DNA of 32,104 nucleotides. It comes from Candidatus Kerfeldbacteria bacterium. GTDB lineage: Bacteria > Patescibacteriota > Patescibacteriia > Veblenbacterales > UBA10138. The translations under genes were made by a program, and so were the position numbers. Positions 2,582 to 32,104 of the stretch are shown here, piece after piece. The DNA lies in contig JACRFN010000080.1 of the NCBI GenBank assembly GCA_016217875.1, positions 1-32,104 on the forward strand. The letters run 5' to 3'. The notes beneath the pieces were generated by a model. It was not told where the DNA came from. It saw only the letters and a list, made by a program, of their open reading frames with translations, and ran no database searches. Each line of letters begins with the position of its first letter. The stretch's first letter is position 1.

Positions 2582-2584
2582 ACT

Positions 2585-6467: not shown

Positions 6468-6491
6468 AGTGTCCGGATAACTATAAATCCG

Positions 6492-7649: not shown

Positions 7650-7651
7650 AA

Positions 7652-15887: not shown

Positions 15888-15901
15888 ACTACCTCCTACC
15901 T

Positions 15902-15931
15902 CATTTACCGATTCGCGCGAATCGGTAAATG
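15902..15931. promoter_or_regulatory. Perfect 30-nt palindrome P2, relative of P1
   Basis: catttaccgattcgc|gcgaatcggtaaatg: 15+15 nt, no mismatch. Starts 15 nt upstream of the ArsR-like ATG. Shares the outer arms CATTTACC/GGTAAATG and the centre TCGCGCGA with P1. The inner stem differs by two compensated pairs (CT..AG versus GA..TC). Confidence 0.7.
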
Positions 15932-15945
15932 CTAAATTTTTAAAA

Positions 15946-16890
15946 TCAAAGGGTGGTGATGGGGCGGGATTGGGTAATGTAGAATTTACCGCTGGCTTGC
16001 GCCCACTCAATGTCGCAAGGAAAACCGTAATGTTTTTCAATGCCGAGGCAAATTTTGGCTAAGGCAATTATCTCCTTACCATTCAGCTTTTGTTTGGATT
16101 TTTTGTTGGCCGCCACTTTTTTCCAAACATTGCCTCCGGTGGATTTACCTTGCATGAATTTTACCTGCTCAGCTACGTTCACATCCATAAGCGTGAGGTG
16201 TTTCTTATCAATAACATAAGAGTCGGGCGTTATTTGTCCTGATACTATGGCTTCGCCCAAACCAAGCCCTGCCTCAATGATCATTTGATTCTTATCCTTA
16301 GTTACCGGATGCACAGTAAAAGCAATGCCGGCAATCTCGGACTGCACCATGGCCTGCACCACCACCGCCACTGAAACTTTGGCTTTGTGCATTTTTTTCT
16401 CGTGGCGGTAGAAAATAGCGCGCGGCGTGAAAAGCGAGGACCAGCAATCTTTAACGCGCTTCAATAAAGTCCTGTCAGTCGTATTCAAATAAGTTTCCAA
16501 CTCCCCTGCCCAACTTGCCTGGGTTGAGTCCTCGGCCGTGGCCGAAGAACGCACGGCCACATACTTGGCTTTAAGTTTTTTAAACTCGGCCGTTATCTCT
16601 TTAGCTAAATCTTTTGGCATACGGGTGTCGTGAATAAGGTCGCGAATCACCACTGAATACCTTTCCACTGAATTGATGTCTTTATATTCAACCTTTTTCA
16701 ACTGAGCCTCGATATCTACTTCCAAGTCAGTCTCGTGCAAAAATCTGTCAAAAGCACTGGCCAAAATGACAAACCCCGGCGGCACCGGAATGCCGGCTTG
16801 TGTCATCTCGCCCAAACTCGCCCCCTTGCCACCGGCCAAAGGCACATCTTTTTTAGAAATTTTACTGAATGACAAGATGTACTTTACCAT
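15946..16890 (-). CDS. Stand-alone PEP synthase / pyruvate phosphate dikinase N-terminal ATP-grasp domain protein (PPDK_N only)
   Basis: 314 aa. DVPLAGGKGASLGEMTQAGIPVPPGFVI, VAVRSSATAEDS and VAVVVQAMV, ending at the canonical domain end CDIEWAQASGKFYITQSRPITTL followed by a stop. There is no swivel or TIM-barrel domain, and only 58 nt remain before the next gene. Confidence 0.85.
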   Translation of the reverse strand: MVKYILSFSKISKKDVPLAGGKGASLGEMTQAGIPVPPGFVILASAFDRFLHETDLEVDIEAQLKKVEYKDINSVERYSVVIRDLIHDTRMPKDLAKEITAEFKKLKAKYVAVRSSATAEDSTQASWAGELETYLNTTDRTLLKRVKDCWSSLFTPRAIFYRHEKKMHKAKVSVAVVVQAMVQSEIAGIAFTVHPVTKDKNQMIIEAGLGLGEAIVSGQITPDSYVIDKKHLTLMDVNVAEQVKFMQGKSTGGNVWKKVAANKKSKQKLNGKEIIALAKICLGIEKHYGFPCDIEWAQASGKFYITQSRPITTL

Positions 16891-16991: not shown

Positions 16992-18296
16992 TTAGTACTC
17001 CTGTGGCTCACCTTTTTCAATAAATTTAAACATTGAGCCATCATTCCGTTCGCATTCTACTGTGACTTCTCCACCCGAATTCAAGCCTATAACCATATCA
17101 CAATGGACTGTAGCGGAATTGAAATTCGGCGTTCCAGGCTCACGACCGAATGAACCATTACTTCCGACCGCAATATGGACTGTTCCATATTTCTTCTCTC
17201 CCTCGGAGGAGCCCCAATATTCACGCGGCTTGGCTTCCAGGGCTCGTCTATTTGTGCCTACACCAAATTCTGCTAAACGATAGGCATCGTTGTGTCTGTT
17301 ATTACCACTATCAAGATACGCGACCCAAAGTTTCTTGGCCTCGGTACTCCCTTCAACCCTTACCACCTCACCATTCTGGATAGTTAACCGAAGCGGCTGG
17401 CCCTTGTCCAAAATATCCTGATTAATGTTACCGCCACATGGCCCATCAACAATCAAAATACCATCTGACCCTTGCCAGTCGGGAGAACATGACCATTCGC
17501 CTATTGGGTAATTTGACAATTGGCCTGGTTTGTTAAGGCGACCATCCTCTAATTCCATATATTCAGGTCTAACCTTAAGCCATAGGTCAGTTCCTAGTTC
17601 GGTAGTTATGTGAACTCTATTCACATCACGCATCAATTTTTGTATCTTATCCGCACGTTCACGCAAAACCTCAACATTTTCCAGTACGGCACCTTTAGTC
17701 AGTATGTCGTAAGGGTTATGACCCTTGGTTATGGAAATGATTCGACTACGAGTAGACTTGGCTAACAATTTCATCTTTTTGTAGGAAGAGTCTGGCAAAC
17801 GACCGTTTAACTCCCGTAGCCTTTGTGGGGAAAGTCCAGACCATCCTTTATTGACGGTCTGGGTAAAAGTAGGTGAACTTAATATTTGCTCAATTACCGA
17901 ACGTTCGACTGCGTTACCCCTTATGGCTGTCCCGGTTTCCGATGAATGAGAACGGGACATTGAAGTAACTATAAGTACCGGACGATCCAACATCTTTTTA
18001 CCAATAGTCTCGCCTAGTGGAGTGGCAGACTTAGGTGAAGCCGGAATTACATATAATTCATAACCTCCAGCGGCACGTGGGTCTTGTGAAGTCCTCTGTT
18101 CAAGCTCTTGCTGTATTGACTCTATAAAAGATTGATTTAATTCCATGACCTTGGTATCTGTAACCACCAATAGACTCTCTTTGGTCGGCTGAAAATCAAA
18201 ACAATCAATAATATTCTTGGCAGCAAGCCTCAGGCGCTCTTTGTTTTCAAGCTCCGATGTTTGTTCGTTAGATAACGATTCTTTTCCTAAAGTCAT
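16992..18296 (-). CDS. M29-family (AmpS/PepS/aminopeptidase T-like) metallopeptidase homolog
   Basis: 434 aa from ATG 18296 (GGAGG 6 nt upstream); the track starts at TTG 18329. The C-terminal region LAEFGVGTNRRA...EKKYGTVHIAVGSN...NSATVHCDMVI matches the M29 metal-ligand pattern (E.G.GTN / GTVH.A.G / H.D). Confidence 0.6.
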   Translation of the reverse strand: MTLGKESLSNEQTSELENKERLRLAAKNIIDCFDFQPTKESLLVVTDTKVMELNQSFIESIQQELEQRTSQDPRAAGGYELYVIPASPKSATPLGETIGKKMLDRPVLIVTSMSRSHSSETGTAIRGNAVERSVIEQILSSPTFTQTVNKGWSGLSPQRLRELNGRLPDSSYKKMKLLAKSTRSRIISITKGHNPYDILTKGAVLENVEVLRERADKIQKLMRDVNRVHITTELGTDLWLKVRPEYMELEDGRLNKPGQLSNYPIGEWSCSPDWQGSDGILIVDGPCGGNINQDILDKGQPLRLTIQNGEVVRVEGSTEAKKLWVAYLDSGNNRHNDAYRLAEFGVGTNRRALEAKPREYWGSSEGEKKYGTVHIAVGSNGSFGREPGTPNFNSATVHCDMVIGLNSGGEVTVECERNDGSMFKFIEKGEPQEY

Positions 18297-18332
18297 AAAT
18301 TCCTCCAAATTATGCAATTTTGTTTTCAAAGT

Positions 18333-18372: not shown

Positions 18373-19209
18373 TTATAGTAGGCTTCGATTTATCCAAGCC
18401 GCTGTAGAAATTATCGGCCAAAACCAGTTGACGTTGTTGCGCGGCGAATCATCATAGAACGACCCTTCATCTAACATAGGACAACAAACTAGCGTCCAAC
18501 CACCTAAATAAACTAAACCTTTCAACCACGTGTTAGCAATCATACCTATGGAAGGAACAATGAGATTACAACCTTCCCACACCGCCCGCTCGTATTCTAT
18601 GTAATATTCTGTGACGTCATAACCCTTACCGCGTAGAAATTCAGCCGCCTCCTCGCAGTATTTGGCTATTTCTTCCAACAGACCAAATTCACCCACACGA
18701 CCACTAAGCCTTCTGGTACTGGCGACGCCGATTTTGGGGATATAACCTAAATCAGTAAGCCACCTAGCTGCTCGCTCTGCCTCAGCCTGCTTTTGCTCAA
18801 GTGTTAAAGAATTATAATTAGAAGGACTCGAAATAGTAAACCATTGCCTATCCTTAGCTATGGTAAGAGGCGTAAATTTGAACTTTGGCTCGGGTCGTCC
18901 CAACGCTTCCACATACACTTTGTGAGTATAAGAATCTTTTAGTTGCCCGCGAACAAAGCCTTCTACTCTACCTTCTTTGACTAAGTCAACAATAACGTGG
19001 CTGGCCTCGTCGTCGTCTTTGGTGGGCATGCAATTCAATCCTTCAATTTGGCAACCGACCACCGTCAAGTCAGTGTAATTTTGCGCCTGACGCAGACTGT
19101 CAACCACTACTGGCTCCGGCCGCCAGATACCAATAGCAATCCGACGCTGCTTTTGCTGCGCTTCTTTTAAAAACCGACTTTGAATTTCGCTAAGTTTATC
19201 ATCAGGCAT
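18373..19209 (-). CDS. Phosphate acetyl/butyryl-transferase (PTA_PTB)-family-like protein, paralog 2
   Basis: 278 aa from ATG 19209 (track: TTG 19215). LVKEGRVEGFVRGQLKDS resembles the Pta/Ptb G-x-ADG-x-V-x-G motif. IVPSIGMIANTWLKGLVYLGGWTLVCCPML resembles the C-terminal P-D/S-x-x-x-GN-x(n)-GP-x-L region. Clear paralog of 20527-21357. Confidence 0.45.
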   Translation of the reverse strand: MPDDKLSEIQSRFLKEAQQKQRRIAIGIWRPEPVVVDSLRQAQNYTDLTVVGCQIEGLNCMPTKDDDEASHVIVDLVKEGRVEGFVRGQLKDSYTHKVYVEALGRPEPKFKFTPLTIAKDRQWFTISSPSNYNSLTLEQKQAEAERAARWLTDLGYIPKIGVASTRRLSGRVGEFGLLEEIAKYCEEAAEFLRGKGYDVTEYYIEYERAVWEGCNLIVPSIGMIANTWLKGLVYLGGWTLVCCPMLDEGSFYDDSPRNNVNWFWPIISTAAWINRSLL

Positions 19210-19225
19210 AATCAACGGTGAATAG

Positions 19226-20524
19226 TTAACGTTTAGTTAATAATCTCACCTCACCTCTCTTAGCGTCAACCTCAACAAGATCACCATCCTTAAGCACCTT
19301 GGTAGCAACTTTAGTGCCAATAATGCAAGGTTTTTTCATCTCACGCGCCATGATACTCGCATGGCATGTTATACCGCCCTCATCAGTCACGAAAGCCGCG
19401 GCGCGTTTCATAGCTATAACAAATGATGGGAAGGTCATTTGGGTAACTAAGATATCACCTGTTTTTACCTTATCCAATTCGTTAACATACTTAACCACCT
19501 TAACAATACCGCGCAACTTACCAGGGTATGCTATCGTACCGCGCACCTTGGTGGTGGTAAGACTCATCTTGGGTAAAATCGGTTTACTAAAGAAGGCTAT
19601 ATTACCGCGCCAAGCCGCCGCTGTAAGATTGGATGAGTAAAAGTGGGGATTACCTGCCAATAAATCATGGATTGAACAATCCCTAAGTTTTTCAAAAGGA
19701 ATATTATATCTATCACCTACAGCGCGTATAACCGGCCTGGCCAAGAACATAAACTCATATAACACATCCGTCCGTAGAGTACGGAAATAGACAAGTTCCT
19801 GTACCACTTTGACTAAAGGGCGTAATGGCACTGGCACGTAAACTCTGGTTTGAATTGGCTTATTTTTTTGTCGTTTTAATTCCTCTCGCTTCTCTTTTAA
19901 ATCCTGCAAAGTAAACCCCGGCGAAAAACCGTCACGAGCTCTCATCCAACTGTATTTATTAAGAATGGTATACAAATCATTATTACGTCGTAGTGCCATC
20001 TCAAAAAGTGCGTACTTATTTTTCTTTATTGGGAAACTAATGTCACCAATGAATTTATCGATGTCGCCTTTAACATATTTTGGCACTTGACGTTTGAGCT
20101 CTTCAGTATAGATATCCTCGAACCCGTGAGCCAGCCAGATATATGACGTAATAGTAGTCAAAATCTTATACAATTCTGCTAGTTTATCTAACGAGTTAAC
20201 TCGAGCCCTTAAGAGCTTATTGATACGCATTTTGTTCTCACGGTAAAACGACTCACAGGAGCTAGAAACCTTAAAAATTGTGACGCCATGTCGTAGATTA
20301 TCACGCAGTTGGTCAGCAAAATCTTTATTTATATCCTGGCTTAACTGCCAACTGTGATTTTCAAATAGCCAAGCCTTCAACTCAGCATTAACTCCAGCCC
20401 ATTTCATGTACCGCCGTGTCATACCGTCCTTGAACAGCGACAGAATAAAGGCTCTAAAAGGACGCTCCATCCAAGGCGTCCAAGCGTAAGAAATTATATT
20501 TTTTTTAATTTCTGGCAAGGTCAT
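19226..20524 (-). CDS. Phosphohistidine swivel (PEP-utilising enzyme mobile) domain protein, paralog G
   Basis: 432 aa. C-terminus GTIAYPGKLRGIVKVV...GDILVTQMTFPSFVIAMKRAAAFVTDEGGITCHASIMAREMKKPCIIGTKVAT..GDLVEVDAKRGEV. N-domain is the most divergent of the set. Confidence 0.8.
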   Translation of the reverse strand: MTLPEIKKNIISYAWTPWMERPFRAFILSLFKDGMTRRYMKWAGVNAELKAWLFENHSWQLSQDINKDFADQLRDNLRHGVTIFKVSSSCESFYRENKMRINKLLRARVNSLDKLAELYKILTTITSYIWLAHGFEDIYTEELKRQVPKYVKGDIDKFIGDISFPIKKNKYALFEMALRRNNDLYTILNKYSWMRARDGFSPGFTLQDLKEKREELKRQKNKPIQTRVYVPVPLRPLVKVVQELVYFRTLRTDVLYEFMFLARPVIRAVGDRYNIPFEKLRDCSIHDLLAGNPHFYSSNLTAAAWRGNIAFFSKPILPKMSLTTTKVRGTIAYPGKLRGIVKVVKYVNELDKVKTGDILVTQMTFPSFVIAMKRAAAFVTDEGGITCHASIMAREMKKPCIIGTKVATKVLKDGDLVEVDAKRGEVRLLTKR

Positions 20525-20526: not shown

Positions 20527-21357
20527 TTATGACTTTTCTTTATTAACCATCGCCACGCAATGTACAATATGCCAAAAGAAATCTTTCTCATTACGACTGC
20601 CATCCTCATATGACACTCCTAAATCCAAATAAGGACAAGAAATGGTCTGCCATCCTCCTAGGTATACAAGCGCCCTGAATAACGCATTACCCACTAAACC
20701 AATTGACGGAATAATTAAATTGCTATGTTGCCAAACTGCCGTTTCGTATTCAAAAAAATATTCGGTTACATCATAACCACGCTTACGTAGGTAGATGGCT
20801 AGTTGTTTATTTGTCTCTGCTAAATCATCAAGCAATTTATACTTACCAACATGGCTCGTAGTACGCAGGCTGGACATCACACCAATTTTGGGAACGACTC
20901 CCAAATCTTCCTCCATATACTTAATAATCCTATCTACTTCATATTTCTTATCATCAATAGTCATGCCATGATAAATAGAACTGGTACTGGCCACAAAACA
21001 GTATTCTCCTTTCTTGAGCACTGCTGGACAGATTTTTCTATTACTTGGTAACGGCTCTTTGTTGAACTGGCGATGAAATTCATCAAGGGTAAAAGAGTCC
21101 TTTACTTGACCTCGCACTATACCGTCTACCTTTCCCTCTTTGAGGAGCCGGATGATAATTCTACTGGCTTCATCATCGTTTGGTTCAACAATATTCTCAA
21201 ACCCATCAACTTTAGCACCCACTATTACCAAATCGGCATACTCAGACGCTCTCTGTAGACTATCTAACGTTTCGGGAATAGGCCGTAAAATACCAATAGC
21301 TACCTTTCTTTTGGTAAGTTTGGCCTTATCAAGAAACGCTTGGGAAAGATCCAACAT
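20527..21357 (-). CDS. Phosphate acetyl/butyryl-transferase (PTA_PTB)-family-like protein, paralog 1
   Basis: 276 aa. Contains LLKEGKVDGIVRGQVKDS and IIPSIGLVGNALFRALVYLGGWQTISCPYL. Collinear with 18373-19209 (KVAIGILRP/RIAIGIWRP, DDEASR/DDEASH, YDVTEY). Confidence 0.45.
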   Translation of the reverse strand: MLDLSQAFLDKAKLTKRKVAIGILRPIPETLDSLQRASEYADLVIVGAKVDGFENIVEPNDDEASRIIIRLLKEGKVDGIVRGQVKDSFTLDEFHRQFNKEPLPSNRKICPAVLKKGEYCFVASTSSIYHGMTIDDKKYEVDRIIKYMEEDLGVVPKIGVMSSLRTTSHVGKYKLLDDLAETNKQLAIYLRKRGYDVTEYFFEYETAVWQHSNLIIPSIGLVGNALFRALVYLGGWQTISCPYLDLGVSYEDGSRNEKDFFWHIVHCVAMVNKEKS

Positions 21358-21368: not shown

Positions 21369-22196
21369 TTAATCATTATATATAAAAATTGGCTCAGTAT
21401 AATAACGTATCTGGTTGTGTGATAAACGTTGCTCCAGCAATTTACGCAAGAATCTATTTTTTGTTGTGATACTGCGCCGGGAACGCACTATCTCGAGTGG
21501 TATGTCCAAACGTAATATTCTGCCCTCTATCGCATGTCTAGTTATACCACTAGGCATATAAATACCGAGTCTGACTGCTTTAATTACATCAATTTCTCTA
21601 AACGGCATAAAAACAAAAAGCGGGCGCGCCTCAGGGTATTCACGACGCAACTCTTTGTAATCAATACCCAACACTCGGAAAAATTTATAACGTCCTTTAT
21701 AAACCTTAACCGCCTTATCAAGCGCCTGGATTTGCCTAGTAAAATCCCGACCAGCGTCTATACACCACGTCGTACGGCCGTCAACAACATAAAGCACTAT
21801 AGCGCGCCGCTTAAGCAGCCGGCGGGCCTTAAGTAGGGTGGTGGCATAAACTTTGGCACCTGTCGCACGCCGTAAGGCCGAAAAAAGCCTACGCCCACCA
21901 GACAAACCGGTTACCAAATGATTCCAGGTCATAAGCCTAACTTCAGTACCGCCATACCTCACTATCTGAACCGGTATCTCTTGGTAGCCTAGTTGTTTGA
22001 AAACCGTCGTGCGGTTGGCACCATCCAGCACTATGTACTTTTTGCCCCCAGCCGTAGGTGCCACCATGGGAGGATTGGTAAAAACCTCGGCTCGCGATAT
22101 GATGCGCTTAAGCTTAGCAATGCGCGCCGAATCAACCTCCTCATGAAGAAGTAACCTATCAAGCTCAACAAACTTTATTGTCGGTAGATTATTCAT
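21369..22196 (-). CDS. ParB/Srx-fold domain protein (SerK-like kinase architecture)
   Basis: 275 aa. The N-terminal FVELDRLLLHEE...KYIVLDGANRTTVFKQLGY fits the ParB/sulfiredoxin fold (DG-x-x-R box, here DGANR). The C-terminal VFMPFREIDVIKAVRLGIYMPSGITRH resembles, from memory, the archaeal serine kinase SerK C-domain. Confidence 0.5.
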   Translation of the reverse strand: MNNLPTIKFVELDRLLLHEEVDSARIAKLKRIISRAEVFTNPPMVAPTAGGKKYIVLDGANRTTVFKQLGYQEIPVQIVRYGGTEVRLMTWNHLVTGLSGGRRLFSALRRATGAKVYATTLLKARRLLKRRAIVLYVVDGRTTWCIDAGRDFTRQIQALDKAVKVYKGRYKFFRVLGIDYKELRREYPEARPLFVFMPFREIDVIKAVRLGIYMPSGITRHAIEGRILRLDIPLEIVRSRRSITTKNRFLRKLLEQRLSHNQIRYYTEPIFIYND

Positions 22197-22223: not shown

Positions 22224-23237
22224 CTAGCCCTCTATATTATCCCCTTCTCCGGGAAATTTAACCCTTTTATATTCAACAGACCATTGTTTAGACCCTCTAT
22301 CATATGTATAACACGCATACTCGCCGGGTAGCGGATAAGGATCCTTGGCGCCAACCTCCTTTTTCTTTTGCCACAATGGACCACTGTGAGTCACAGCCAC
22401 AACTACCACCTTACGGTCACCTATCTTTTCTTTGGGTAAGGTACTAACAATTTCCTCAAGCGCCTTATCAGAACGACGCGCTACATCAACAGGAGTGTCA
22501 TATGGCTTATCTGGGACAGGTGTGTCGTCTGTAGCACCTAAGACACCAGTACGCTGTTCAGCCTGTGTAAGTTCGGCTGCCCAAATATGCATTAATTCCT
22601 TACCACCCTTTAGACTTTTGGTACTTTCACCAGTTCTTTCATTAACCACCTTACGTAGTTCAACCAACAATGACTTTGGTACATCAAGGTCACCCAACTC
22701 CTTATGCGGTTCTAAACGTAACGAAATTATGTCACGATTCGACGCCGATCGTTCACCTTCTTCTATCAATCTATCGAAACGGGCAGTAGCTATATCAATG
22801 GTATACTCCGAGCGCGGCTGTCCGCTTCCTACCCATACCACAGCTGCCTTGTCGCCGGCATTTTGGTAAAGCTCCTCAGCCAAAGCCACGGCCCGAAGCG
22901 TCCCCCGTGGCGATAGTGATTTTTCAATAAAATCGTCCACCTTAAGTTCGGCGCGTCCATGGCTTTCTGGTTTACGCTTTAAATAACCGCCTTTTTCCTC
23001 CCAACGCTCAATATCAGCAAAAACATTAGCCAAAGCTTGCTCTTGCTGTAAAATTTTAGCTGTCTGTAGCTGACTAACGCCTTGCTCAAGAAGCTTTTGA
23101 ATTTCAGTTCTAAGTTTAGTCCGCGCCTCAGCATAACGCTGAATTTCTTCCGGCCCCCTCAGCTCGGATTTATCCATATGACGGATTTCACGGATCTCTG
23201 ATAAATCTATTTCTGGGGGTACCTCTTTTTTAAGCAT
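22224..23237 (-). CDS. Hypothetical protein, weak histidine-phosphatase (PGM-like) superfamily features
   Basis: 337 aa. IREIRHMDKSE (RH), SLSPRGTLRAVALAEEL (L-S/T-x-x-G-x-x-Q/R-A motif), GQPRSEYT and VVVAVTHSGPLW (second His) occur in the order expected for branch-1 histidine phosphatases. However, about 85 aa of charged, coiled-coil-like insert separate RH from LSPRG. Confidence 0.3.
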   Translation of the reverse strand: MLKKEVPPEIDLSEIREIRHMDKSELRGPEEIQRYAEARTKLRTEIQKLLEQGVSQLQTAKILQQEQALANVFADIERWEEKGGYLKRKPESHGRAELKVDDFIEKSLSPRGTLRAVALAEELYQNAGDKAAVVWVGSGQPRSEYTIDIATARFDRLIEEGERSASNRDIISLRLEPHKELGDLDVPKSLLVELRKVVNERTGESTKSLKGGKELMHIWAAELTQAEQRTGVLGATDDTPVPDKPYDTPVDVARRSDKALEEIVSTLPKEKIGDRKVVVVAVTHSGPLWQKKKEVGAKDPYPLPGEYACYTYDRGSKQWSVEYKRVKFPGEGDNIEG

Positions 23238-23256: not shown

Positions 23257-24786
23257 TTAGTTAACTAGTTTTACTATACCTGTTTCAGGAATTAATTCTA
23301 TCTTATCACCATCATGAAAAACTGACGTAGCGATTTTGGTACTAATAATGCAAGGTATTTTTAACTCGCGTGAAATAATGGCGGCATGACAAGTAAGCGC
23401 TCCTTCGTTAGTAACGATTCCCTTCACCTTGCGAAGTATAGGTACCATATCTGGTGAAGTCATCATGGTTACTAATATATCTCCCTGACGCACCTTGCGA
23501 ATTTCCTTAGCCGTCATTAAAATGCGCGCCGTGCCTTGAACATGACCATGGTAAACAGTCAAACCACTAACGTAGCTTTGTTTGCTAGCCGAGGTCTTAG
23601 GGAGCTCGCGCTTTATATATTGCCTAGCAGCTACTCCTGTCAGAACTGACTCTTTACCGTGCTTTAGAATAAGAACGGCCAGCTGATGACGGGCGTTGAT
23701 AACCGGCCGTGGTGGAAGTACACCTTTTTGTAAAAATAATCTTATTTCACGAGCAGTCAACACCATCAATTCTTTGTTTAGCAAACGTGCCCGACGTGCT
23801 ACTTCAGTATAAAGTTTTTGCAAACGATAATTGCCATAACCTTGCATATAGCCAAACTGTGTGCGAAGCGAAAGGTAAACCCCAAGATAGCCTAGCAAAC
23901 GCCTAATATGTAAAGGAGGGTTAACCTGCTTAATAAGGTCACGACGCCGCTGTTGGACACTATCTGACTGGTTTTTAATCTCGCGACGACGTACTAAATA
24001 CCTTTTACTAGTAGTCAAATTAATTAATCTGGTCAAGAAATCTTTTGGTGTCCAAGCGGGCCCCTCAATAAACACAGGTAACCAGCAATAATTTGAAATG
24101 TGTTTATTGAATTTTCTGGCAAAGGTCGGATAACGGTCGGCTAGCGTACCAATAAGCTTAGACTGTCGTTTTACTTTTTTAAGTAAAGGTAAAAGCCCGC
24201 GAGTTTTTACTACCCCGGCCGCCAGGTTAATCAATTGTTTTTCCTCTTTTATGCCCAGTGTTCCTCCTTGCGGCACAATAAGCTGGCTTAAGAATTGGTC
24301 TAGCAAATCATCAGTAAGCGCCTTACCAGACTTAGCCAGCTTTAGTTTAAGCCATCGTCTTACGTCTCGCGCCAAAGCATTACTTAGTACCCTGGTACTA
24401 ATAGGGCCATAAGCCGCAAATAGCTTATAAGTATTAACGGCCTGATTAAAAACAGCTAAAAGCTGACGATTTGTAAGTTGCCTGATTTTAAGACTGTCAA
24501 TAATACGACCCATCTGAACCAACAGCTGCTCACGAAGCTTAAATTGTCGCAAATTTTCCTTAACAAAGTGGTCACTATGAGAAACTTTACGCGCCAGATA
24601 GTCAGTGAGCATTTGCATCTCCGCGGCCAAACAATAGCCACCTCCTATACCAGGTTTGAATATCGCCATACGCTCTGTGTAGCCACGGCCAATAAGGCGC
24701 TTAAGATCATAAGACATCGACTCGTGATGAATCGAGCCTGATAGGACAGAGAAATTTCTAGTGCTCTTTTTCTCCCATTTGTCCAT
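23257..24786 (-). CDS. Phosphohistidine swivel domain protein, paralog F
   Basis: 509 aa. C-terminus GLTVYHGHVQGTARIL...GDILVTMMTSPDMVPILRKVKGIVTNEGALTCHAAIISRELKIPCIISTKIAT..GDKIELIPETG. Confidence 0.85.
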   Translation of the reverse strand: MDKWEKKSTRNFSVLSGSIHHESMSYDLKRLIGRGYTERMAIFKPGIGGGYCLAAEMQMLTDYLARKVSHSDHFVKENLRQFKLREQLLVQMGRIIDSLKIRQLTNRQLLAVFNQAVNTYKLFAAYGPISTRVLSNALARDVRRWLKLKLAKSGKALTDDLLDQFLSQLIVPQGGTLGIKEEKQLINLAAGVVKTRGLLPLLKKVKRQSKLIGTLADRYPTFARKFNKHISNYCWLPVFIEGPAWTPKDFLTRLINLTTSKRYLVRRREIKNQSDSVQQRRRDLIKQVNPPLHIRRLLGYLGVYLSLRTQFGYMQGYGNYRLQKLYTEVARRARLLNKELMVLTAREIRLFLQKGVLPPRPVINARHQLAVLILKHGKESVLTGVAARQYIKRELPKTSASKQSYVSGLTVYHGHVQGTARILMTAKEIRKVRQGDILVTMMTSPDMVPILRKVKGIVTNEGALTCHAAIISRELKIPCIISTKIATSVFHDGDKIELIPETGIVKLVN

Positions 24787-24828
24787 ATACTATACAATAT
24801 AACTCAATGTTTAAGTTGGCCGTGAACA

Positions 24829-26241
24829 CTATAGTTTTCTCACCTTTCCCTGCCTTAAGTCAAGTTCTACCTTATCCCCTGTTTTTAAAATTTTGCTGGC
24901 TGTTTTAGTGCCAATTATGCACGTAACGCCTAACTCGCGTGCGATAATGGCTGCATGGGAAGTAATGCCACCCTCATCTGTAACAATGGCAGACGCCCGA
25001 CGCATAATAGTAACGAAATCCGGCCTGGTCATGGTAGTTACTAAAATGCGTCCGGTTTTGAAGTTATCACGGTGCGGATCAAGTACTACCTGAACCACAC
25101 CTTTAAGTCTGCTCACCGGAGCCGAGGCTACCTGGCCTTTTATCTCGCTCCCCTGCTTTTTGAATATGGCCCGCCACAACCGCCCAGCAGATACGCCGGT
25201 AATAAACTCGTCGCGTACTCCATTATGTTCCCTAACAACTACATAAACGGAAAACTTCCTCCGCGCGGCGAGTGCTGACATTGTGGGTAGTACTCCGCGC
25301 TTTAATCCGGCTACAGCTTCCTCAGTTGTCATATACTTTACTTGCCACAGCGGACGCGATAGCCTGCGAGCTATAGCACGTGCATACGCTTCCAAGTACC
25401 AATTAACAATAAGCGCCGTGTGCTTACGCTGGTCTATCCAACCAGCCCACCAGCAAAGCAACCTAAATGCCGCGCGTAGATCGGTTGACAACTTATACTG
25501 CTGAAGTACCATTGACCGAAGCCCGGCTGCTCGTCTTACTTTCGTGCCTAAACTCCTCAACTCCTGTTGTAACTCACGCTTAGATTTATTTTGGCATAAG
25601 TGTCGCAACTGTTGCCACACAGTACCCGAATTAAACGGGCGGCCCTCTCGGTAGTTCGATAACAGCCAAAGGTAGTGATTTGCGAATGATGCTATTCGTT
25701 CTTTAAACTCAGACGACACCTTATGTAAAGATGCAGTCTTTCTCACCGAGCCGTACCCACGAATAGCTAACCTTAATAGCGCTTGATGCTGTTCCTCCAT
25801 AAAGCTAAGCTGCTTGGGCGCAGATAAGGCAATAGCGATATCGTTCAACTGTTCAGTAGTAAGTTTGGGTAGTTCGCGTTTTAACAAACCCGGCAGCTCT
25901 TTAGTACCAAAAACGTCAGAGCTTTCCTGAACCCAGGTATATCGCCAGTGATCACGTACTAAATCACTGAAATGCTTAAATGAATGTGCCAGTTCAAAAT
26001 TTTTTAACTTGGGCGCAATCTGCACAAAAGCCCTACCCCACCGTTCTATGGCCGTAGCTACCCTCTTCCAGGCGTTGTACCTGCTAGTTTGATATGACCA
26101 GTTTTGGTTTGAGCGCCGTAGCACGTGATGCCAGACCTTCAGCTTTTGGCTCTCCGGAGTTTCCTCGTAGACAAAATCCTTTTTGAAAAAACAAAAGATG
26201 ATATTGGGTAGCTTAGGATGCCAATATCGTGACTGTTCCAC
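24829..26241 (-). CDS. Phosphohistidine swivel domain protein, paralog E
   Basis: 470 aa from a GTG start. C-terminus GQVASAPVSRLKGVVQVV...GRILVTTMTRPDFVTIMRRASAIVTDEGGITSHAAIIARELGVTCIIGTKTAS..GDKVELDLRQG. N-domain motifs HYLWLLSNY and GWIDQRK. Confidence 0.85.
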   Translation of the reverse strand: MEQSRYWHPKLPNIIFCFFKKDFVYEETPESQKLKVWHHVLRRSNQNWSYQTSRYNAWKRVATAIERWGRAFVQIAPKLKNFELAHSFKHFSDLVRDHWRYTWVQESSDVFGTKELPGLLKRELPKLTTEQLNDIAIALSAPKQLSFMEEQHQALLRLAIRGYGSVRKTASLHKVSSEFKERIASFANHYLWLLSNYREGRPFNSGTVWQQLRHLCQNKSKRELQQELRSLGTKVRRAAGLRSMVLQQYKLSTDLRAAFRLLCWWAGWIDQRKHTALIVNWYLEAYARAIARRLSRPLWQVKYMTTEEAVAGLKRGVLPTMSALAARRKFSVYVVVREHNGVRDEFITGVSAGRLWRAIFKKQGSEIKGQVASAPVSRLKGVVQVVLDPHRDNFKTGRILVTTMTRPDFVTIMRRASAIVTDEGGITSHAAIIARELGVTCIIGTKTASKILKTGDKVELDLRQGKVRKL

Positions 26242-26336
26242 AAATTACCGCATCCACTGACAAAAAAGCGGCACACCAGGACACCCCTCACTCCACCAAG
26301 TATCCCGTTTCACGCTTTTTACCAATTCTGTAACTT

Positions 26337-27785
26337 TCATAGCTTTGTCACCAACCCTTTTATAGCATCCACCCTTACCCTATCCCCTGTTCTTAGTACC
26401 TGGGTGGCTATTTCGGTACCCACCACACAAGGAATACCGAGCTCGCGTGAAACTATAGCGGCGTGCGAAGTAATTCCACCAACATCAGTTACCACAGCCG
26501 CTGCCTTACGCATAGCCACAATAAAATCAGGTGAAGTCATAGTGGTGACTAAAATATCACCTGACTTCATTTTACCCGCCTCTTTAGGTGAAAGAATAAT
26601 ACTAACACGGCCCACCACCAGACCAGAGCTTACTACCTGTCCCCTAAGCTCAATTTCCTTTGCCGACCTGGTCTTGACTTGATACTTATCAAATATTATG
26701 CGAGCCTTATCCCCAAAAACATAGCGAGTCGGCTTCTTAGGGTCCCATATGACCACAAAATAACGTTTCCGCTGTGTTATTTCACTTACAGATACCTTAA
26801 TTTTGTTTTGCGCTAACTGAATAACATCGCGGAACGTATAATAATGCAAGTCACCAAAATTAACTTTATACCTTCTGGACAACTCCCGTAAAATGACGTC
26901 AATAACATGATTGGCTTGAAAAATGTAAGATTTTCTACTGTCTTGCCACCAAATGCAAAATGCCAGTCTTCGCGCGATTTTGAGGGTTGTTTTGCCTAGA
27001 CTCAATTTTTTTACCAACCCTTCTTTAGCCAGCCGGGAGGAACGAATTGAACCGGCAACACTTCGTAACTTACGACGTGCCTCTTCTTGGCGAGACAGAC
27101 CCAAGAGCCGCTTTTTAAAATACGATAGCGGCAGCACGCGCGTATTGTGATAGCTATTCAGCAACCAATAGTACCGCTGTTGGTGTTCTATCAGCTTACG
27201 TGCTAGAAGCCGCTTATCCTTAATTGCCCGTAAGCGCCATAAATCGCATTCCTCTTGTTGGTAAAATGACAATTGTTCAGGCGCCGACAACTTTTCTATA
27301 ATAGCTACTTCATCCTGCTGACGGACTAATTTACGTTCAATGCCTTTTTTAAGCAACAATTCGCCTCCAAAACTGGCTATCTCAGGAAGCAGCCCTACCC
27401 CCCAAAACCTGCGACTGTAAAAATTGTACCAATTATAAACGGTGGAATATAACTTCTGATTCGTAAGTGACCTAAGATAAGACGGCTGTAGGCGACTATT
27501 TAAAGAAACAAAATTTTTTACAATACTTTGCCACACTTGATATGACTTTCTAAACGCTACATCATGTAATATAAACCGTGTAAATACCTTTTCCGCGTGA
27601 GAATACAAATCACTGTGATCAGTAAGGTAAGTAAATCTGTCACTAACATACGATATTAGGCTCAACGGCCAGCCTGGGGAAAATAGCGCCCTATTAGCCG
27701 ACAGTCCTTCGTACCAAGGGTCGGGATATATGGGCCGGCCGTCTATCGGCCCCCAGCGCCATAATTTTCTTTTGGGATTAATCAT
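26337..27785 (-). CDS. Phosphohistidine swivel domain protein, paralog D
   Basis: 482 aa. C-terminus GQVVSSGLVVGRVSII...GDILVTTMTSPDFIVAMRKAAAVVTDVGGITSHAAIVSRELGIPCVVGTEIAT..GDRVRVDAIKG. N-domain motifs QQRYYWLLNSY and WWQDSRK. 8-nt ATGATTAA overlap with the HAD-like stop. Confidence 0.85.
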   Translation of the reverse strand: MINPKRKLWRWGPIDGRPIYPDPWYEGLSANRALFSPGWPLSLISYVSDRFTYLTDHSDLYSHAEKVFTRFILHDVAFRKSYQVWQSIVKNFVSLNSRLQPSYLRSLTNQKLYSTVYNWYNFYSRRFWGVGLLPEIASFGGELLLKKGIERKLVRQQDEVAIIEKLSAPEQLSFYQQEECDLWRLRAIKDKRLLARKLIEHQQRYYWLLNSYHNTRVLPLSYFKKRLLGLSRQEEARRKLRSVAGSIRSSRLAKEGLVKKLSLGKTTLKIARRLAFCIWWQDSRKSYIFQANHVIDVILRELSRRYKVNFGDLHYYTFRDVIQLAQNKIKVSVSEITQRKRYFVVIWDPKKPTRYVFGDKARIIFDKYQVKTRSAKEIELRGQVVSSGLVVGRVSIILSPKEAGKMKSGDILVTTMTSPDFIVAMRKAAAVVTDVGGITSHAAIVSRELGIPCVVGTEIATQVLRTGDRVRVDAIKGLVTKL

Positions 27786-28428
27786 GGTGATTCAATAAAT
27801 ACTCCTCACTATCCCTCAATTGCCCCAGATCACCTATTTTATAATAATCATCAGAAATCTTCTCGAGTGGACTATTATTATTACTTAAATTATAAACTCT
27901 AAACTTAAATTTAGCTGATAGATTTAAGCACTTCCTAGCGGCCTTTATAAAAAACTGGCAATTAGCTGACTTGTCGTCAGTATAAACTACGGCATCAAAT
28001 CCTTGCTTTATTTTTTTACTAATTAAATCAACCAACATGGCTTTTGTTTTCACATTGGTATTGCCATAATCAAAAGTGCTGCAAATTTCCGCAATGTATG
28101 GCCTGACATCAAAGCCGTATTTGTTTTGTAATTGTACTGCCCGCCAATCTATTTGTTCTTTATTACCGGTAGTAAATACTCCATTATTTTTTGTCCAACT
28201 TAATACTTCCTTAAAACCGTCGGCAATCGATAAATTATATAAGCCTTCTTTATAAGGCTTCTCATAAGCTAACTCATACTCTAAAGGTGTCACGCTAACC
28301 AGTGGCTTTTGGTACAAATTAATAACATAATCATCATAAGTATCAAAACCAGATAATTTTTTGTTCCACTTTTCAATAAAAAGAGTATCGGCTAGATCCC
28401 AGAGATAAAAAATTTTAATAATAGGCAT
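27778..28428 (-). CDS. HAD-superfamily-like hydrolase with atypical motif I
   Basis: 216 aa. IFYLWDLADTLF (motif I-like, DLADT instead of DxDxT), GVFTTGNKE (motif II Thr), and a later Lys plus VVYTDDKSAN (motif IV DD). Confidence 0.45.
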   Translation of the reverse strand: MPIIKIFYLWDLADTLFIEKWNKKLSGFDTYDDYVINLYQKPLVSVTPLEYELAYEKPYKEGLYNLSIADGFKEVLSWTKNNGVFTTGNKEQIDWRAVQLQNKYGFDVRPYIAEICSTFDYGNTNVKTKAMLVDLISKKIKQGFDAVVYTDDKSANCQFFIKAARKCLNLSAKFKFRVYNLSNNNSPLEKISDDYYKIGDLGQLRDSEEYLLNHHD

Positions 28429-28429
28429 A

Positions 28430-29866
28430 TTAATTATGCTTTAATACCGTCACTACCCCATGATTAGCATTAACTTCCACATAGTCACCGTTCTTCAAAG
28501 CTTTAGTGGCAATTTTTGTACCAATAATGCAAGGAATGGCTAACTCGCGGCTAATAATAGCTGCGTGACAAGTAACACCGCCCTCATCAGTCACAATCGC
28601 CGCGGCTTTTTTCATAGCTGACAAATATTCCGGGCGTGTCATAGAAGCAACCATAATATCTCCTTGTTTGATGGCGGCGATGTCTTTTAAGAATCTACAA
28701 ATTTTTACCACGCCCATGACTCGCCCACTGTTGGCTACCATACCCTCTATAGTCAAAACCACTGAATCTATACGTGCTCTAACTGAATGATAAAATTTTT
28801 CTAACAATTTAAATTCATGACCGCTTACTAAAATTTCCTTTTTGTAACTAATCCAATCAAAACAACCCTGGCGCCGCTCAACTAAAATCGGCCGGAGTTT
28901 TTTCAGCTCACTCAAATCCTTCAGCTTTAATAATTCAAAAGCTGCCAGGTACTGAAGATTAACTACTGGCATTGATAACCGCCGACTAATCTCGTTAATT
29001 ATTATCTGAGTATGATAAATTGCTTTAAAAATATTAACCTTTCTTTGGTCTTGCCAGTCGGCTACCTCCACTATTAATTTGACGCATTTATTTAACTGCT
29101 TATCTCGGCGCGACAAAAAATTATTTACTGTTGGTTTAAGAATTTTCTTTTGCTTGGATAACTGCCTAAGTCGGTAAAGTAAATACTTAGCATCAACCGT
29201 CTTTGAGCCAGTGTAATTGGTTCTAAACCAATAATATTTACTAACATGCTGTTCCAACCGCTGTTCTAAAAGCTTTCCCTTGAATCTACCTAATCTTTTT
29301 AGCTCAACCTCTTCCCGATTTATAAACGATGGTTTATAAAAATTCGCCAAACCTTGCATCTTTTTATTAACCTCAGCTGTTGAGTATTGTTTTTCTAAAT
29401 ATTTTTTTAAATCAGTTTCTAAACCAATACTGACAATTTCAATGACGTGTGATAAATCGATTGATTCCATCAAACTATGTCCAGCCTTGATAAACCAACT
29501 CAACAGCTGCTGATCACTAAGATTTTTTATGTCGGATGATCTTATTATTTCAAACCAGGGTTCATAAGCGCTAAATATTCTATTGTACTGCCGCCTAATT
29601 TTAATTAAATAGGAAAAACTATCATACATCCGTCGTTTCATGATACGCCATAGTTTAGCAAAATCAGCTGCATCATAACTCCCTTCGGCGTAATTATTTT
29701 TGTAATAAAACAAATAGGGCGAATAATTGAAACCCAAATACTTTTTCATGCGATACCCGCTGGCCGCAGCGGTCGTCAAATATAAAGGCACGGCATTAAG
29801 CCCTTGAGTTAACCAGGATTTTTTAAATAACTTTTTAAAAAAATCTATTCTCGTCTTTGAGTTCAT
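28430..29866 (-). CDS. Phosphohistidine swivel domain protein, paralog C
   Basis: 478 aa. C-terminus GMVANSGRVMGVVKIC...GDIMVASMTRPEYLSAMKKAAAIVTDEGGVTCHAAIISRELAIPCIIGTKIAT..GDYVEVNANHGVVTVLK. N-domain motifs KYYWFRTNY and DWQDQRK. AT-rich gene. Confidence 0.85.
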   Translation of the reverse strand: MNSKTRIDFFKKLFKKSWLTQGLNAVPLYLTTAAASGYRMKKYLGFNYSPYLFYYKNNYAEGSYDAADFAKLWRIMKRRMYDSFSYLIKIRRQYNRIFSAYEPWFEIIRSSDIKNLSDQQLLSWFIKAGHSLMESIDLSHVIEIVSIGLETDLKKYLEKQYSTAEVNKKMQGLANFYKPSFINREEVELKRLGRFKGKLLEQRLEQHVSKYYWFRTNYTGSKTVDAKYLLYRLRQLSKQKKILKPTVNNFLSRRDKQLNKCVKLIVEVADWQDQRKVNIFKAIYHTQIIINEISRRLSMPVVNLQYLAAFELLKLKDLSELKKLRPILVERRQGCFDWISYKKEILVSGHEFKLLEKFYHSVRARIDSVVLTIEGMVANSGRVMGVVKICRFLKDIAAIKQGDIMVASMTRPEYLSAMKKAAAIVTDEGGVTCHAAIISRELAIPCIIGTKIATKALKNGDYVEVNANHGVVTVLKHN

Positions 29867-29867
29867 A

Positions 29868-31364
29868 CTATTTTCGCTTTAATACAGTCACTACCCCATG
29901 ATTAGCATTCACCTCCACAATATCACCATCTTTTAACACCTCGGTGGCAATCTTGGTACCTATAATACAGGGGATACCGAGTTCGCGTGAGACAATAGCG
30001 GCGTGGCAGGTTATTCCTCCTTCATTGGTCACAATGGCGGCCGCCTTTTTTATTCCCATAATGTAATCCGGCCGTGTCATAACCGCCACCAAAATATCGC
30101 CTGGTTGTATCTTTCCTACCTCACGTACTGAATTCAATACCTTTACCGGGCCGACAACACGACCAACCGAAGCTGATAAACCGCGAATATCGCGGACCTC
30201 GTCGCTGTGCTTTTGGGGGAACATCAATATACGCAAGCGCTCTACCTCACGCCTGGTAGCAACGTAGTAACCGCCGCGCCACACTACAAAAGCGCAGTTT
30301 TGTCTTCGTTGTCTGAGCTCTAACTGCGCAGGCTTCCCATGCTCAAACCAATACTCAACCTCACTGGGTAAGAGATACTTAGTAAACTCAGGGTCCAGCC
30401 CACGACGCCGCGCCATGGCGCCCAAGATTTGCGTACCCAAGTGGATGTTTAAAAAAGTTGATCTCTTGCGCTCATCCTGCCACCAAGTAAAGTCCTCAGA
30501 TATCTTGAGTAACGTACGTAAAAAGCGTGAAAATTTATACTTCTTAAAAATTACTGTCTTGCGCTTGGCATTGGTACGCGACGCATCACGAAGCTGTTGA
30601 TACTTAAGACGCAGATTGGCTCCCGACTGCTTCCATAACGTGATTTCCTTCCTGAAGTATCCAACGCTCAGTACCTTCGCTGTTATGTAGTTATTTTTAA
30701 TCCAAAAGTATCTCTGCTGATAGCGCTCAAGCTCCTGCCGGCTAACACGCGGTTTGAGCGCGAGCTTAAGCAGCTCCATTTCGGCCTCATTAATGAACGA
30801 CTGTCGTACCGGCGCCGTAGCAACGCTAAATATCTCGGTGAAATTGGACTCCTTGCTTAATTTACCGACTTCTTGGCGTAATATGGCGGCAATATGCTCG
30901 TCAGTGCCCAGGGCGAAATGATCAATGATGGCCGAAGAGGTAACCCGACGGCGAAATAACTGCCGGTAATGTAAATAGAAGGCTAGGAGTTCTTGGTCGC
31001 TCAAACGCTTCAAAATAGCGGCATTGAAAGTATTAAAGAAGTGCTGGAAAGCCATTTCATCCTTACGCCAGGCACGCAAAAGCTTGGTGCTGATACGAAG
31101 GTCGCCCTTGGCCAACCGCAACATTACCGTCGAGCCACGCTTGATGTCGGCCATATCAAGGTACCAATCACCCTTGCCACTCGGTGTAAAAAAGCTGACG
31201 CGGACATCGGCCTCGGTGCCTTTTGGCTTGCGCGGCTCACGGTCAATTTCCGCCTCGGCTACGGCGTACAAGTACATGGGCGAGCCGTCAAAACGCTGGT
31301 GGTACCACTGATGCCCCTTTGCCAGCTTTACGACTTTCCGCGGTATGGTAGAGGTTTGGGGCAT
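29868..31364 (-). CDS. Phosphohistidine swivel domain protein, paralog B
   Basis: 498 aa. C-terminus GLSASVGRVVGPVKVL...GDILVAVMTRPDYIMGIKKAAAIVTNEGGITCHAAIVSRELGIPCIIGTKIAT..GDIVEVNANHGVVTVLK. N-domain motifs QQRYFWIKNNY and WWQDERK. Confidence 0.85.
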   Translation of the reverse strand: MPQTSTIPRKVVKLAKGHQWYHQRFDGSPMYLYAVAEAEIDREPRKPKGTEADVRVSFFTPSGKGDWYLDMADIKRGSTVMLRLAKGDLRISTKLLRAWRKDEMAFQHFFNTFNAAILKRLSDQELLAFYLHYRQLFRRRVTSSAIIDHFALGTDEHIAAILRQEVGKLSKESNFTEIFSVATAPVRQSFINEAEMELLKLALKPRVSRQELERYQQRYFWIKNNYITAKVLSVGYFRKEITLWKQSGANLRLKYQQLRDASRTNAKRKTVIFKKYKFSRFLRTLLKISEDFTWWQDERKRSTFLNIHLGTQILGAMARRRGLDPEFTKYLLPSEVEYWFEHGKPAQLELRQRRQNCAFVVWRGGYYVATRREVERLRILMFPQKHSDEVRDIRGLSASVGRVVGPVKVLNSVREVGKIQPGDILVAVMTRPDYIMGIKKAAAIVTNEGGITCHAAIVSRELGIPCIIGTKIATEVLKDGDIVEVNANHGVVTVLKRK

Positions 31365-31366: not shown

Positions 31367-32104
31367 TTAAAGCTTTCTGATTACTCCTTTATTGGCGTCA
31401 ATCTCAACCATATCACCATCGCACAACGATGATATTAGATTCTTCACCCCCACCACACATGGTTTATTCAACTCGCGCGCCACGATGGCGGCATGGCTGG
31501 TTAAGCCGCCAGTTTCGGTCAGTATGGCCTTAGCCTGGCGCATGATGGGTAAATAATTAACGTTAGTAAATGGTGCCACCAAAATAGTACCTTTTTTAAA
31601 CTTTGGTATGTGTGAAATGTTGAGAATAATTGAAGCCTGGCCCACTACCTTACCAGGCGAAGCCGGCAAACCTTTTAACGATTTACTGACCATGTCTTTC
31701 AACAACGACAAATATTTTTTACCACCAGGCGATATTTGTCCATCAGTCATTAAATAAACGGCTGACTTGTCCCGCTGGGGCCAATTATCTATTTTATTTC
31801 CGGCTAATAAGCCAATTATTTCTGTCGGCCTCAATTGATAAATCTTTCTAAGCTGACTAAGACTATAACGCGGATACCGCCAAGCAATTAACCGCCTAAT
31901 AAATATGTTAACTTTATTAATCACTTCTTTTTTACGTTCATTATACAAGTACATCAGCTGATGAATATTTTTAATTTCCCGACGTAAACCCACCGGCAGC
32001 GCGGTGGTTATCTTGTTTATCTCACTTATTCGGCGGTGCGCTGCTTGCAACTGAGAACGATATTCATCCAACTCGCCTTTAATTTCCTTCAGCTGGGCTG
32101 TTAA
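31367..32104 (-). CDS. Phosphohistidine swivel domain protein, paralog A (5' end beyond the right window edge)
   Basis: The frame is open from 32104: ...LTAQLKEIKGELDEYRSQ precedes the track's TTG at 32071. C-terminus GLPASPGKVVGQASII...GTILVAPFTNVNYLPIMRQAKAILTETGGLTSHAAIVARELNKPCVVGVKNLI..GDMVEIDANKG. YLYNERKKEV aligns with the WWQDxRK motif of B-E. Confidence 0.8.
   Translation of the reverse strand, partial: LTAQLKEIKGELDEYRSQLQAAHRRISEINKITTALPVGLRREIKNIHQLMYLYNERKKEVINKVNIFIRRLIAWRYPRYSLSQLRKIYQLRPTEIIGLLAGNKIDNWPQRDKSAVYLMTDGQISPGGKKYLSLLKDMVSKSLKGLPASPGKVVGQASIILNISHIPKFKKGTILVAPFTNVNYLPIMRQAKAILTETGGLTSHAAIVARELNKPCVVGVKNLISSLCDGDMVEIDANKGVIRKL

Follow-up and report, generated by a model that had tools for sequence, protein, structure and literature searches.

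Candidate acceptor subunits of a split dikinase encoded in tandem with a single ATP-grasp gene in Candidatus Kerfeldbacteria

What does a bacterium of the Patescibacteria (Candidate Phyla Radiation, CPR), a group with genomes of ~1 Mb and a very sparse metabolism, do with ~10 kb of DNA given over to six or seven paralogous versions of a single enzyme module, of which its relatives keep up to eleven? This question is raised by a locus of Candidatus Kerfeldbacteria bacterium that was analyzed here in a window of 32,104 nucleotides (contig JACRFN010000080.1 of GenBank assembly GCA_016217875.1, positions 1 to 32,104). All open reading frames (ORFs) of the array, denoted A to G, lie on the minus strand at the coordinates given in Table 1 and form a single-strand gene run. 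The initial annotation, whose range of 23257-31364 leaves A and G outside, described the region upstream of the C-terminal phospho-histidine swivel as a shared but fast-diverging N-terminal domain (N-domain) that could not be assigned to a family and that might bind different substrates in different copies. The best explanation of the locus, by analogy with characterized systems, appears to be that B to G are the "H-type" subunits of a two-component small-molecule dikinase whose single "I-type" subunit is the stand-alone ATP-grasp protein encoded at 15946-16890, and we consider this likely. Each H-type subunit would comprise a substrate-binding domain, a flexible linker and the C-terminal swivel.

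Each of the seven ORFs ends with a PF00391 swivel domain (E 1e-21 to 5e-26). The catalytic histidine is invariant in all seven, aligning in B with His825 of rifampin phosphotransferase (RPH), and the motif T-x-x-G-G-x-T-[C/S]-H is found in six, with G-A instead of G-G in F. The N-domains range from 320 amino acids (aa) in G to 399 aa in F. The N-domains of B, C, D and E are clearly homologous, as indicated by Smith-Waterman z-scores of 14-27 against shuffled sequences and by BLASTP (E 1e-7 to 1e-10, except for C-E at 0.02), both computed on the N-domains only. The F domain is tied to this set via E (z 8.4) and via homologs from a related genome (up to z 15.8, Y1); a phmmer search with F retrieves family members at E 1e-23 to 1e-198. 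The G domain has no significant pairwise match and is connected at the profile level only, a G-type profile of five sequences matching the family profile with an hhalign probability of 98.9% (E 2e-17, 282 columns). Paralog A, at the head of the array, keeps only positions 269-372 of the family hidden Markov model (HMM; 15.5 bits) and has the appearance of a copy in decay; the closest relative (locus L001, positions 9771-10004) has in its place a protein of only 77 aa with Tyr instead of the catalytic His. The claim that B to F share the domain, and G and A more weakly, is thus upheld, and the motif strings on which it rested are all present and in register in the translations and the alignment. 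In the database, B is called from Met71 (P0001, 428 aa); because orthologs of 490-500 aa span all 498 residues and residues 9-70 fold confidently, the true start is the ATG at 31364.

The family is large. A search of 1.84 billion representative proteins with a profile of the six N-domains retrieved 4499 clusters at 50% identity, 2934 of them at E<=1e-10, mostly consisting of proteins of 470-525 aa. In an alignment of 159 family sequences, the columns in which one residue occurs in at least 70% of the sequences sit in four islands (in B numbering, L126; L182/P185/S189/F190/L198; H215/Y219/W221/N224/Y226; W295/Q296/D297/R299/K300), with E316, R320, E335, R353 and G371 beyond them. The blocks between the islands are poorly conserved, so that the picture of conserved islands separated by stretches of low identity is borne out column by column. 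D297, R299 and K300 are present in 86-94% of the sequences, and S189, F190 and L198 in 82-84%. The N-domain family is specific to Patescibacteria and mostly helical.

The description of the domain as fast-diverging is accurate for the paralogs, which are old and share only 19-29% identity in the N-domain versus 43-67% in the swivel, but not for the orthologs of B, D and E, which are well conserved. N-domain identity to the orthologs in the closest relative (L001) amounts to 64% for B, 51% for D (D1) and 45% for E (X1). The closest relatives of B are proteins of 490-500 aa with 40-74% identity that are spread across Patescibacteria classes, including Uhrbacteria, Kerfeldbacteria, Kuenenbacteria, Buchananbacteria, Magasanikbacteria and other Patescibacteria. 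In the closest syntenic cluster, C, F and G lack an ortholog-level counterpart, which indicates that membership of the array turns over. Judging from the sequences, the family appears to be old and under constraint; synonymous sites are saturated, given that the closest available orthologs share only ~64-69% protein identity. The first 110 residues are among the least conserved stretches between paralogs and yet are as well conserved within orthologs as the rest of the domain (55% vs 51% in B, 57% vs 45% in E), a pattern that would be expected of a region that determines specificity.

The evidence that places the N-domain comes from both modelled structure and sequence profiles. The AlphaFold2 (AF2) model of full-length B has a predicted local distance difference test score (pLDDT) of 90.3 and a predicted template modelling (TM) score of 0.86, with a mostly helical N-domain, and the N-domain modelled alone (aa 1-392) reaches a pLDDT of 92.8. 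Foldseek comparison of full B with the Protein Data Bank (PDB) gives a whole-chain match to RPH-Lm only (5FBU/5FBS/5HV1/5FBT; E ~5e-13, query TM-score (TMq) 0.54-0.58), pyruvate phosphate dikinase (PPDK), pyruvate kinase and Enzyme I covering the swivel only (TMq ~0.19). With the N-domain alone, the top six matches are RPH-Lm entries (E 8e-4 to 7e-3, probability 0.99-1.0, TMq 0.36-0.46 over 403-432 columns), and the next match follows at E 0.11 and TMq 0.13. Alignment by hhalign of the 159-sequence family profile with a 41-sequence profile of the RPH rifampin-binding domain yields a probability of 83% (E 9.1e-6) and a collinear alignment of 308 columns, from B 43-376 to RPH 382-758, with a score of 46.2 compared to 16-28 for reversed or block-shuffled template controls. 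In a PDB profile search, the alignment to 5FBS extends ~65 aa upstream of the swivel; hhalign of a 32-sequence alignment with the single RPH sequence aligned only from RPH residue 699 onward, and a PDB sequence search with a six-sequence N-domain profile found nothing. Identity to the RPH substrate domain is ~12-13%.

Modelled structure and profile evidence thus agree, and we conclude with moderate confidence that the N-domain is remotely homologous to the domain of RPH that binds rifampin, its acceptor substrate, the relationship being very distant, specific and collinear. Because its sole structural relative is the rifampin-binding domain, the N-domain is best read as an acceptor-substrate-binding domain that faces the swivel histidine, in agreement with the substrate-binding role suggested in the initial annotation. 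The assignment does not amount to a single known function: the RPH-like superfamily acts on many small molecules, among them rifamycins, phenol, cresol, hydroxyphenylethanones and prodiginine precursors (PMC4844700, PMC12167813). The domain was described as unassignable, and this holds for Pfam and NCBIfam families but not for its fold, superfamily and two-component dikinase architecture.

Two of the four islands can be aligned with the catalytic apparatus of RPH. In the hhalign residue map, Q296, D297 and K300 of motif iv correspond to R666, E667 and K670 of RPH (Y-R666-E667-Y-P-K670, block 9), and I191 and E195 of motif ii to T523 and G527 (arm-2, N-I-T523-S-Q-M-G527-L-E-L-L). In RPH, E667 hydrogen-bonds the phospho-carrier His825 and T523, the phosphate is held by R666 and K670, the latter via Q337, and the substitution G527Y blocks rifampin binding (PMC4844700). 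Since motifs ii and iv align with phosphotransfer residues of RPH, at least these two islands are more than the scaffold for which the conserved motifs had been taken, and we propose that they are the equivalents of the phosphotransfer site, with motif iv binding the phosphate and the histidine. The rifampin contacts of RPH are mostly residues 336-387, at the start of its domain, which by collinearity would correspond, with low confidence, to the first part of the N-domain here; the contact residues themselves are not recognizable in the N-domains.

The remaining domain of RPH is encoded by the stand-alone ATP-grasp gene that ends the cluster. Its product is 38% identical to residues 1-316 of RPH-Lm, keeps the equivalents of K22, R117 and T136, and has the same QSRPITTL end, so that the window encodes the three domains of RPH split exactly at the first domain boundary. 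Among NCBIfam models, NF005057 (1e-100) and NF004878 match best. Stand-alone homologs of this protein are 70-88% identical across Patescibacteria. In a survey of 38 genome loci around B orthologs (±10 kb), most of the 38 had several same-strand genes (up to 11) for N-domain plus swivel proteins, and the stand-alone ATP-grasp gene was found in 17, never in more than one complete copy. We propose that the ATP-grasp protein is the shared ATP-binding partner of all paralogs; its slow evolution and the conserved swivels, set against the divergent N-domains, would fit many swivels docking on one partner.

A reaction cycle can be outlined by analogy with RPH, PpsAB and HpeHI. The swivel histidine of a given paralog would dock in trans on the ATP-loaded ATP-grasp protein and accept the beta-phosphate, with AMP and inorganic phosphate (Pi) leaving, after which the swivel would swing back to its own N-domain. 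There, D297 and R299/K300 of motif iv, together with S189-F190...E195 of motif ii, might position the phosphorylated histidine (His~P) so that the phosphate passes to a small molecule bound in a cleft, at a hydroxyl or a comparable group. This cleft would consist for the most part of segments that differ from paralog to paralog, above all the first ~110 aa, and the paralogs would accordingly have distinct ligands. One slowly evolving ATP-grasp protein would thus be shared by six or seven acceptor subunits that differ in specificity.

Several observations weigh against this interpretation. Neither Pfam nor NCBIfam contains a family that matches the proteins upstream of the swivel, whether the full proteins or the N-domains alone are searched. 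For the N-domain alone, the Foldseek TM-scores are below 0.5 and the hhalign probability is 83% rather than >95%; a smaller, 32-sequence profile gave a collinear local hhalign alignment to RPH that was not significant (E 0.15). The phosphate-binding R666 of RPH is aligned with a conserved Gln in the family, although the adjacent R299 may take over its role, and the Gln336/Gln337 block of RPH has no confident alignment to the family. F and G lack D297 and K300, their motif iv reading L-S-L-R-T and R-T-L-R-T, respectively, with R299 as the sole residue kept; the chemistry may differ in some copies, and F and G may form a subgroup of this kind. Finally, the single ATP-grasp gene per genome is a count made within ~10 kb of the arrays.

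The architecture itself has precedents. HpeHI of Rhodococcus, CreHI of Corynebacterium and the phenylphosphate synthase PpsAB of Thauera are two-component dikinases homologous to RPH in which the I or B subunit is the ATP-grasp protein and the H or A subunit consists of an RPH-like substrate domain and a C-terminal swivel (PMC12167813). HpeH, CreH and PpsA share ~45% identity. The two subunits bind each other only transiently, and HpeH alone catalyses phosphate exchange (PMC12167813). The Patescibacteria proteins resemble these systems in the separate ATP-grasp, in the order of the substrate domain and the C-terminal swivel and in the presumed His~P ping-pong mechanism. They differ in the gene ratio, which is 1:1 in the characterized systems compared to one ATP-grasp for 6-7 substrate subunits here and up to 11 elsewhere; in the size of the substrate subunit (470-510 aa vs ~640 aa); in the swivel, which keeps the PEP-synthase-type (PEP, phosphoenolpyruvate) motif GGxT[C/S]H with a Thr where HpeH and RPH have Met; and in the host, a fermentative Patescibacterium with no aromatic-catabolism genes nearby. 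The N-domain has no detectable similarity to the PRK08296-type NCBIfam models, which we take to be PpsA-like and which match the swivel only, and it appears to represent a sequence family separate from, and far more distant than, that of HpeH, CreH and PpsA. A Rhodococcus plasmid gene that was considered as an HpeH-like two-component candidate encodes a fused 881-aa protein and was dropped.

With RPH-Lm, the locus shares the order of substrate domain, linker and C-terminal swivel, the T523/G527 and E667/K670 motif equivalents and an ATP-grasp domain homologous over residues 1-316, but RPH is a single chain of 867 aa, whereas in the window the ATP-grasp has a gene of its own and the paralogs begin with the substrate domain. 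The RPH models NF041857 and NF000283 match the paralogs in the swivel region only, at 51-88 bits against a cut-off of 999, and the Patescibacteria homologs carry no record of PF27448, a newer Pfam model that marks the RPH-family proteins obtained in a search with the central domain of RPH. In sequence, the ATP-grasp and the swivel are closest to PEP synthase (swivel vs 8a8e, E 6e-46), with which they share the His~P swivel chemistry. The swivel is, however, C-terminal here and central in PEP synthase and PPDK, the acceptor fold differs, and the C-terminal PEP/pyruvate-binding TIM barrel PF02896 is absent from all paralogs in the Pfam scan. In Foldseek, PEP synthase aligns, like PPDK, with the swivel only.

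Of the alternatives to the one-to-many dikinase, the use of polymers or proteins as acceptors has parallels: swivel dikinases act on polymers (glucan water dikinase, GWD; PMC13553574) and on proteins (Enzyme I), and the largely helical N-domain is in this respect similar to the HPr-binding subdomain of Enzyme I. The paralogs could accordingly phosphorylate envelope glycans, as GWD phosphorylates glucan, or take part in a phospho-relay such as that from Enzyme I to HPr. This is unlikely because the Foldseek matches of the N-domain alone are to the rifampin-binding domain of RPH only, with structures of Enzyme I or of a carbohydrate-binding module (CBM) absent, the Enzyme I matches of full B being restricted to the swivel (TMq 0.15-0.20), because no HPr-like or CBM domains were detected in the Pfam scan, and because the polar motifs equivalent to the small-molecule phosphotransfer site of RPH are conserved. 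Nor do the paralogs have the domain plan of Enzyme I, in which a helical HPr-binding subdomain is inserted in the swivel and a TIM barrel forms the C-terminus. Quite unlikely, too, is a role of the paralogs as ATP-dependent condensing ligases like PigC, RedH and HapC, in which a carbonyl or hydroxyl of one substrate is phosphorylated only to activate it for joining to a second one, without release of a phospho-product. These ligases belong to the same RPH-like superfamily, and NCBIfam alignments do extend beyond the swivel for C (aa 252-476 to RedH 652-879) and D (aa 294-479 to PigC 692-879), but with scores of ~50-78 bits against cut-offs of 1300-1350. Alignments of this kind (C with RedH, D with PigC and also D with NF004880) were rejected as independent evidence for the N-domain, as they are lost upon removal of the swivel, and the N-domain alone gives no match. 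Furthermore, PigC, RedH and HapC are fused three-domain proteins of ~880 aa, whereas the array has no biosynthetic context, the cluster being devoid of pyrrole or polyketide biosynthesis genes, and seven ligases of secondary metabolism would hardly be expected in a small fermentative genome.

The array could also operate in reverse as an energy harvester, with host phospho-metabolites charging the swivel histidine and the ATP-grasp protein making ATP from AMP and Pi or pyrophosphate, a role known from the PPDK of some anaerobes. In bacteria and protists, PPDK works reversibly and forms ATP (PMC5371819), HpeH alone exchanges phosphate between substrates (PMC12167813), and the organism is fermentative, with acetate kinase, the phosphate propanoyltransferase PTAC and PFOR encoded in the window. 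The ATP-grasp is, however, of the PEP-synthase/RPH type, with NF005057 and NF004878 as the best models, and the HAD-like and His-phosphatase-like genes of the cluster fit the turnover of phospho-products. In the forward direction, enzymes of the PEP-synthase type split off the gamma-phosphate by hydrolysis, a reaction considered essentially irreversible, which leaves reverse operation very unlikely. Hardly credible, finally, is a reading in which the shared motifs reflect common descent of a helical scaffold and most copies are non-catalytic or decaying, with no distinct ligands. The state of A and the loss of the catalytic His in its counterpart in the relative, the absence of part of motif iv from F and G and the variation in array membership between close relatives could be taken in this sense. 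Yet B, D and E have orthologs in different Patescibacteria classes that align over the full length at 40-69% identity, none of the seven copies in the window has lost the catalytic His, the charged residues are kept in >85% of the family members, the 4499 clusters mostly retain a length of 470-525 aa, and ~10 kb of dead genes are rarely kept by tiny genomes.

If the one-to-many dikinase is taken as a starting point, a broader scenario can be put forward tentatively, as possible rather than probable: a hub-and-spoke battery in which one conserved ATP-grasp "charger" serves up to ~11 tandem acceptor subunits, each trapping or activating its own metabolite, scavenged from host or environment, while the recurrent HAD-like and MtxX/phosphate-acyltransferase-like genes process the phospho-products. 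If true, ultra-small symbionts would have a core metabolic strategy that has so far gone unrecognised, based on a new protein family of >4000 sequence clusters. The two-component dikinase architecture is already known from HpeHI, CreHI and PpsAB. What is new here is the very large and very divergent Patescibacteria clade of acceptor subunits, with its smaller size and a PEP-synthase-like swivel with Thr, and, above all, the tandem arrays of up to ~11 such subunits with a single ATP-grasp in tiny genomes. A literature search found no description of such arrays in CPR; one CPR resistome survey counts rph-like genes (PMC8651080). CPR genes of this kind should not be counted as rph (rifampin-resistance) or PEP-synthase genes. 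Annotations such as "PEP-utilizing enzyme" or "hypothetical protein" can be replaced by a testable hypothesis, that of multi-substrate phosphorylation with one shared ATP-grasp. The recently defined two-component dikinase subfamily, hitherto described only in a few cultured bacteria, where it serves aromatic catabolism, would gain a much larger and more divergent clade, whose >4000 clusters at 50% identity escape the current models of Pfam and NCBIfam, and the paralogs would offer a natural set of related scaffolds with presumably differing specificities for enzyme engineering.

Table 1. Features of the array and its neighborhood in the 32,104-nucleotide window
Feature	Position	Strand	Length (aa)	Details
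Paralog A	31367-32071	minus	234	truncated copy: ~last 100 aa of N-domain (YNERK onward) and swivel
Paralog B	29868-31364	minus	498	N-domain, linker and swivel
B, N-domain	30210-31364	minus		aa 1-~385
B, motif ii, SFINEAEMELLKL	30762-30800	minus		aa 189-201; translation confirmed
B, motif iv, WWQDERK	30465-30485	minus		aa 294-300; translation confirmed
B, flexible linker				aa ~381-395; low AF2 confidence at ~381-392
B, swivel His domain	29868-30179	minus		aa ~396-498; PF00391 at aa 419-490
B, phospho-carrier His codon	30003-30005	minus		H454 in GGITCHAAI; translation confirmed
Paralog C	28430-29866	minus	478	N-domain and swivel
Accessory gene between C and D	27778-28428	minus	216	HAD-phosphatase-like motifs WDLADT, FTTGN, VVYTDDK, read from sequence
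Paralog D	26337-27785	minus	482	N-domain and swivel
Paralog E	24829-26241	minus	470	N-domain and swivel
Paralog F	23257-24786	minus	509	divergent N-domain and swivel
His-phosphatase-like	22224-23237	minus		
SbnI/free-serine-kinase-like	21369-22196	minus		ParB-like fold; PDB 6nr6, E 4e-16
MtxX/Mmp4-like	20527-21357	minus		paralogous pair with 18373-19215, flanking G
Paralog G	19226-20524	minus	432	most divergent N-domain (320 aa) and swivel; flanked by two MtxX-like genes
MtxX/Mmp4-like	18373-19215	minus		paralogous pair with 20527-21357, flanking G
M29-peptidase-like	16992-18329	minus		
Stand-alone ATP-grasp	15946-16890	minus	314	PF01326, E 1.8e-95; ends the same-strand cluster

The organization of the cluster is conserved in a related 88-kb contig, which encodes a swivel-only stump, counterparts of B and C, a 214-aa gene, a counterpart of D, three more paralogs, a HAD protein and, further along, a G-type copy between two MtxX-like genes, an M29-like protein and one ATP-grasp, followed by Rrf2, SOD and Suf genes. 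Among the accessory genes, searches of Pfam, NCBIfam and the PDB gave no match for the 216-aa protein encoded between C and D, homologs of which are found in 12 of the 38 related arrays. For the His-phosphatase-like protein, a PDB search gave nothing useful. MtxX-like genes lie beside the arrays in 10 of the 38 loci. These MtxX/Mmp4-like proteins ("methanogenesis marker protein 4"), which are unexpected in a bacterium, have a phosphate-acyltransferase-like fold, and the pair hints at acyl-phosphate chemistry. The gene at 21369-22196, inside the cluster, encodes a homolog of SbnI and of the archaeal free L-serine kinase. Altogether, the accessory genes fit phospho-metabolite chemistry but leave the substrates unspecified.

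Some database proteins of 900-2300 aa (P0363, P0364, P0366 and P0367) hold two to four copies of the N-domain; these may be true tandem fusions or read-through gene calls caused, for example, by an alternative genetic code. The arrays L019, L026, L027 and L031 encode swivel proteins of ~480 aa whose N-domains are not matched by the family HMM, so that further, more divergent N-domain subfamilies probably exist.

Directly downstream of the ATP-grasp gene, the window encodes an ArsR-like helix-turn-helix protein (15609-16040), a CDGSH iron-sulfur protein (15303-15497) and an Rrf2 regulator (14802-15236). SOD and SufCBD/SufS come next, and all these genes together form a separate module for iron-sulfur clusters and oxidative stress. 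At 760-9197, in keeping with a Patescibacteria (Uhrbacteria-like) origin, there is a fermentative core that consists of PFOR subunits, acetate kinase, the PduL-type PTAC and a PfkB kinase.

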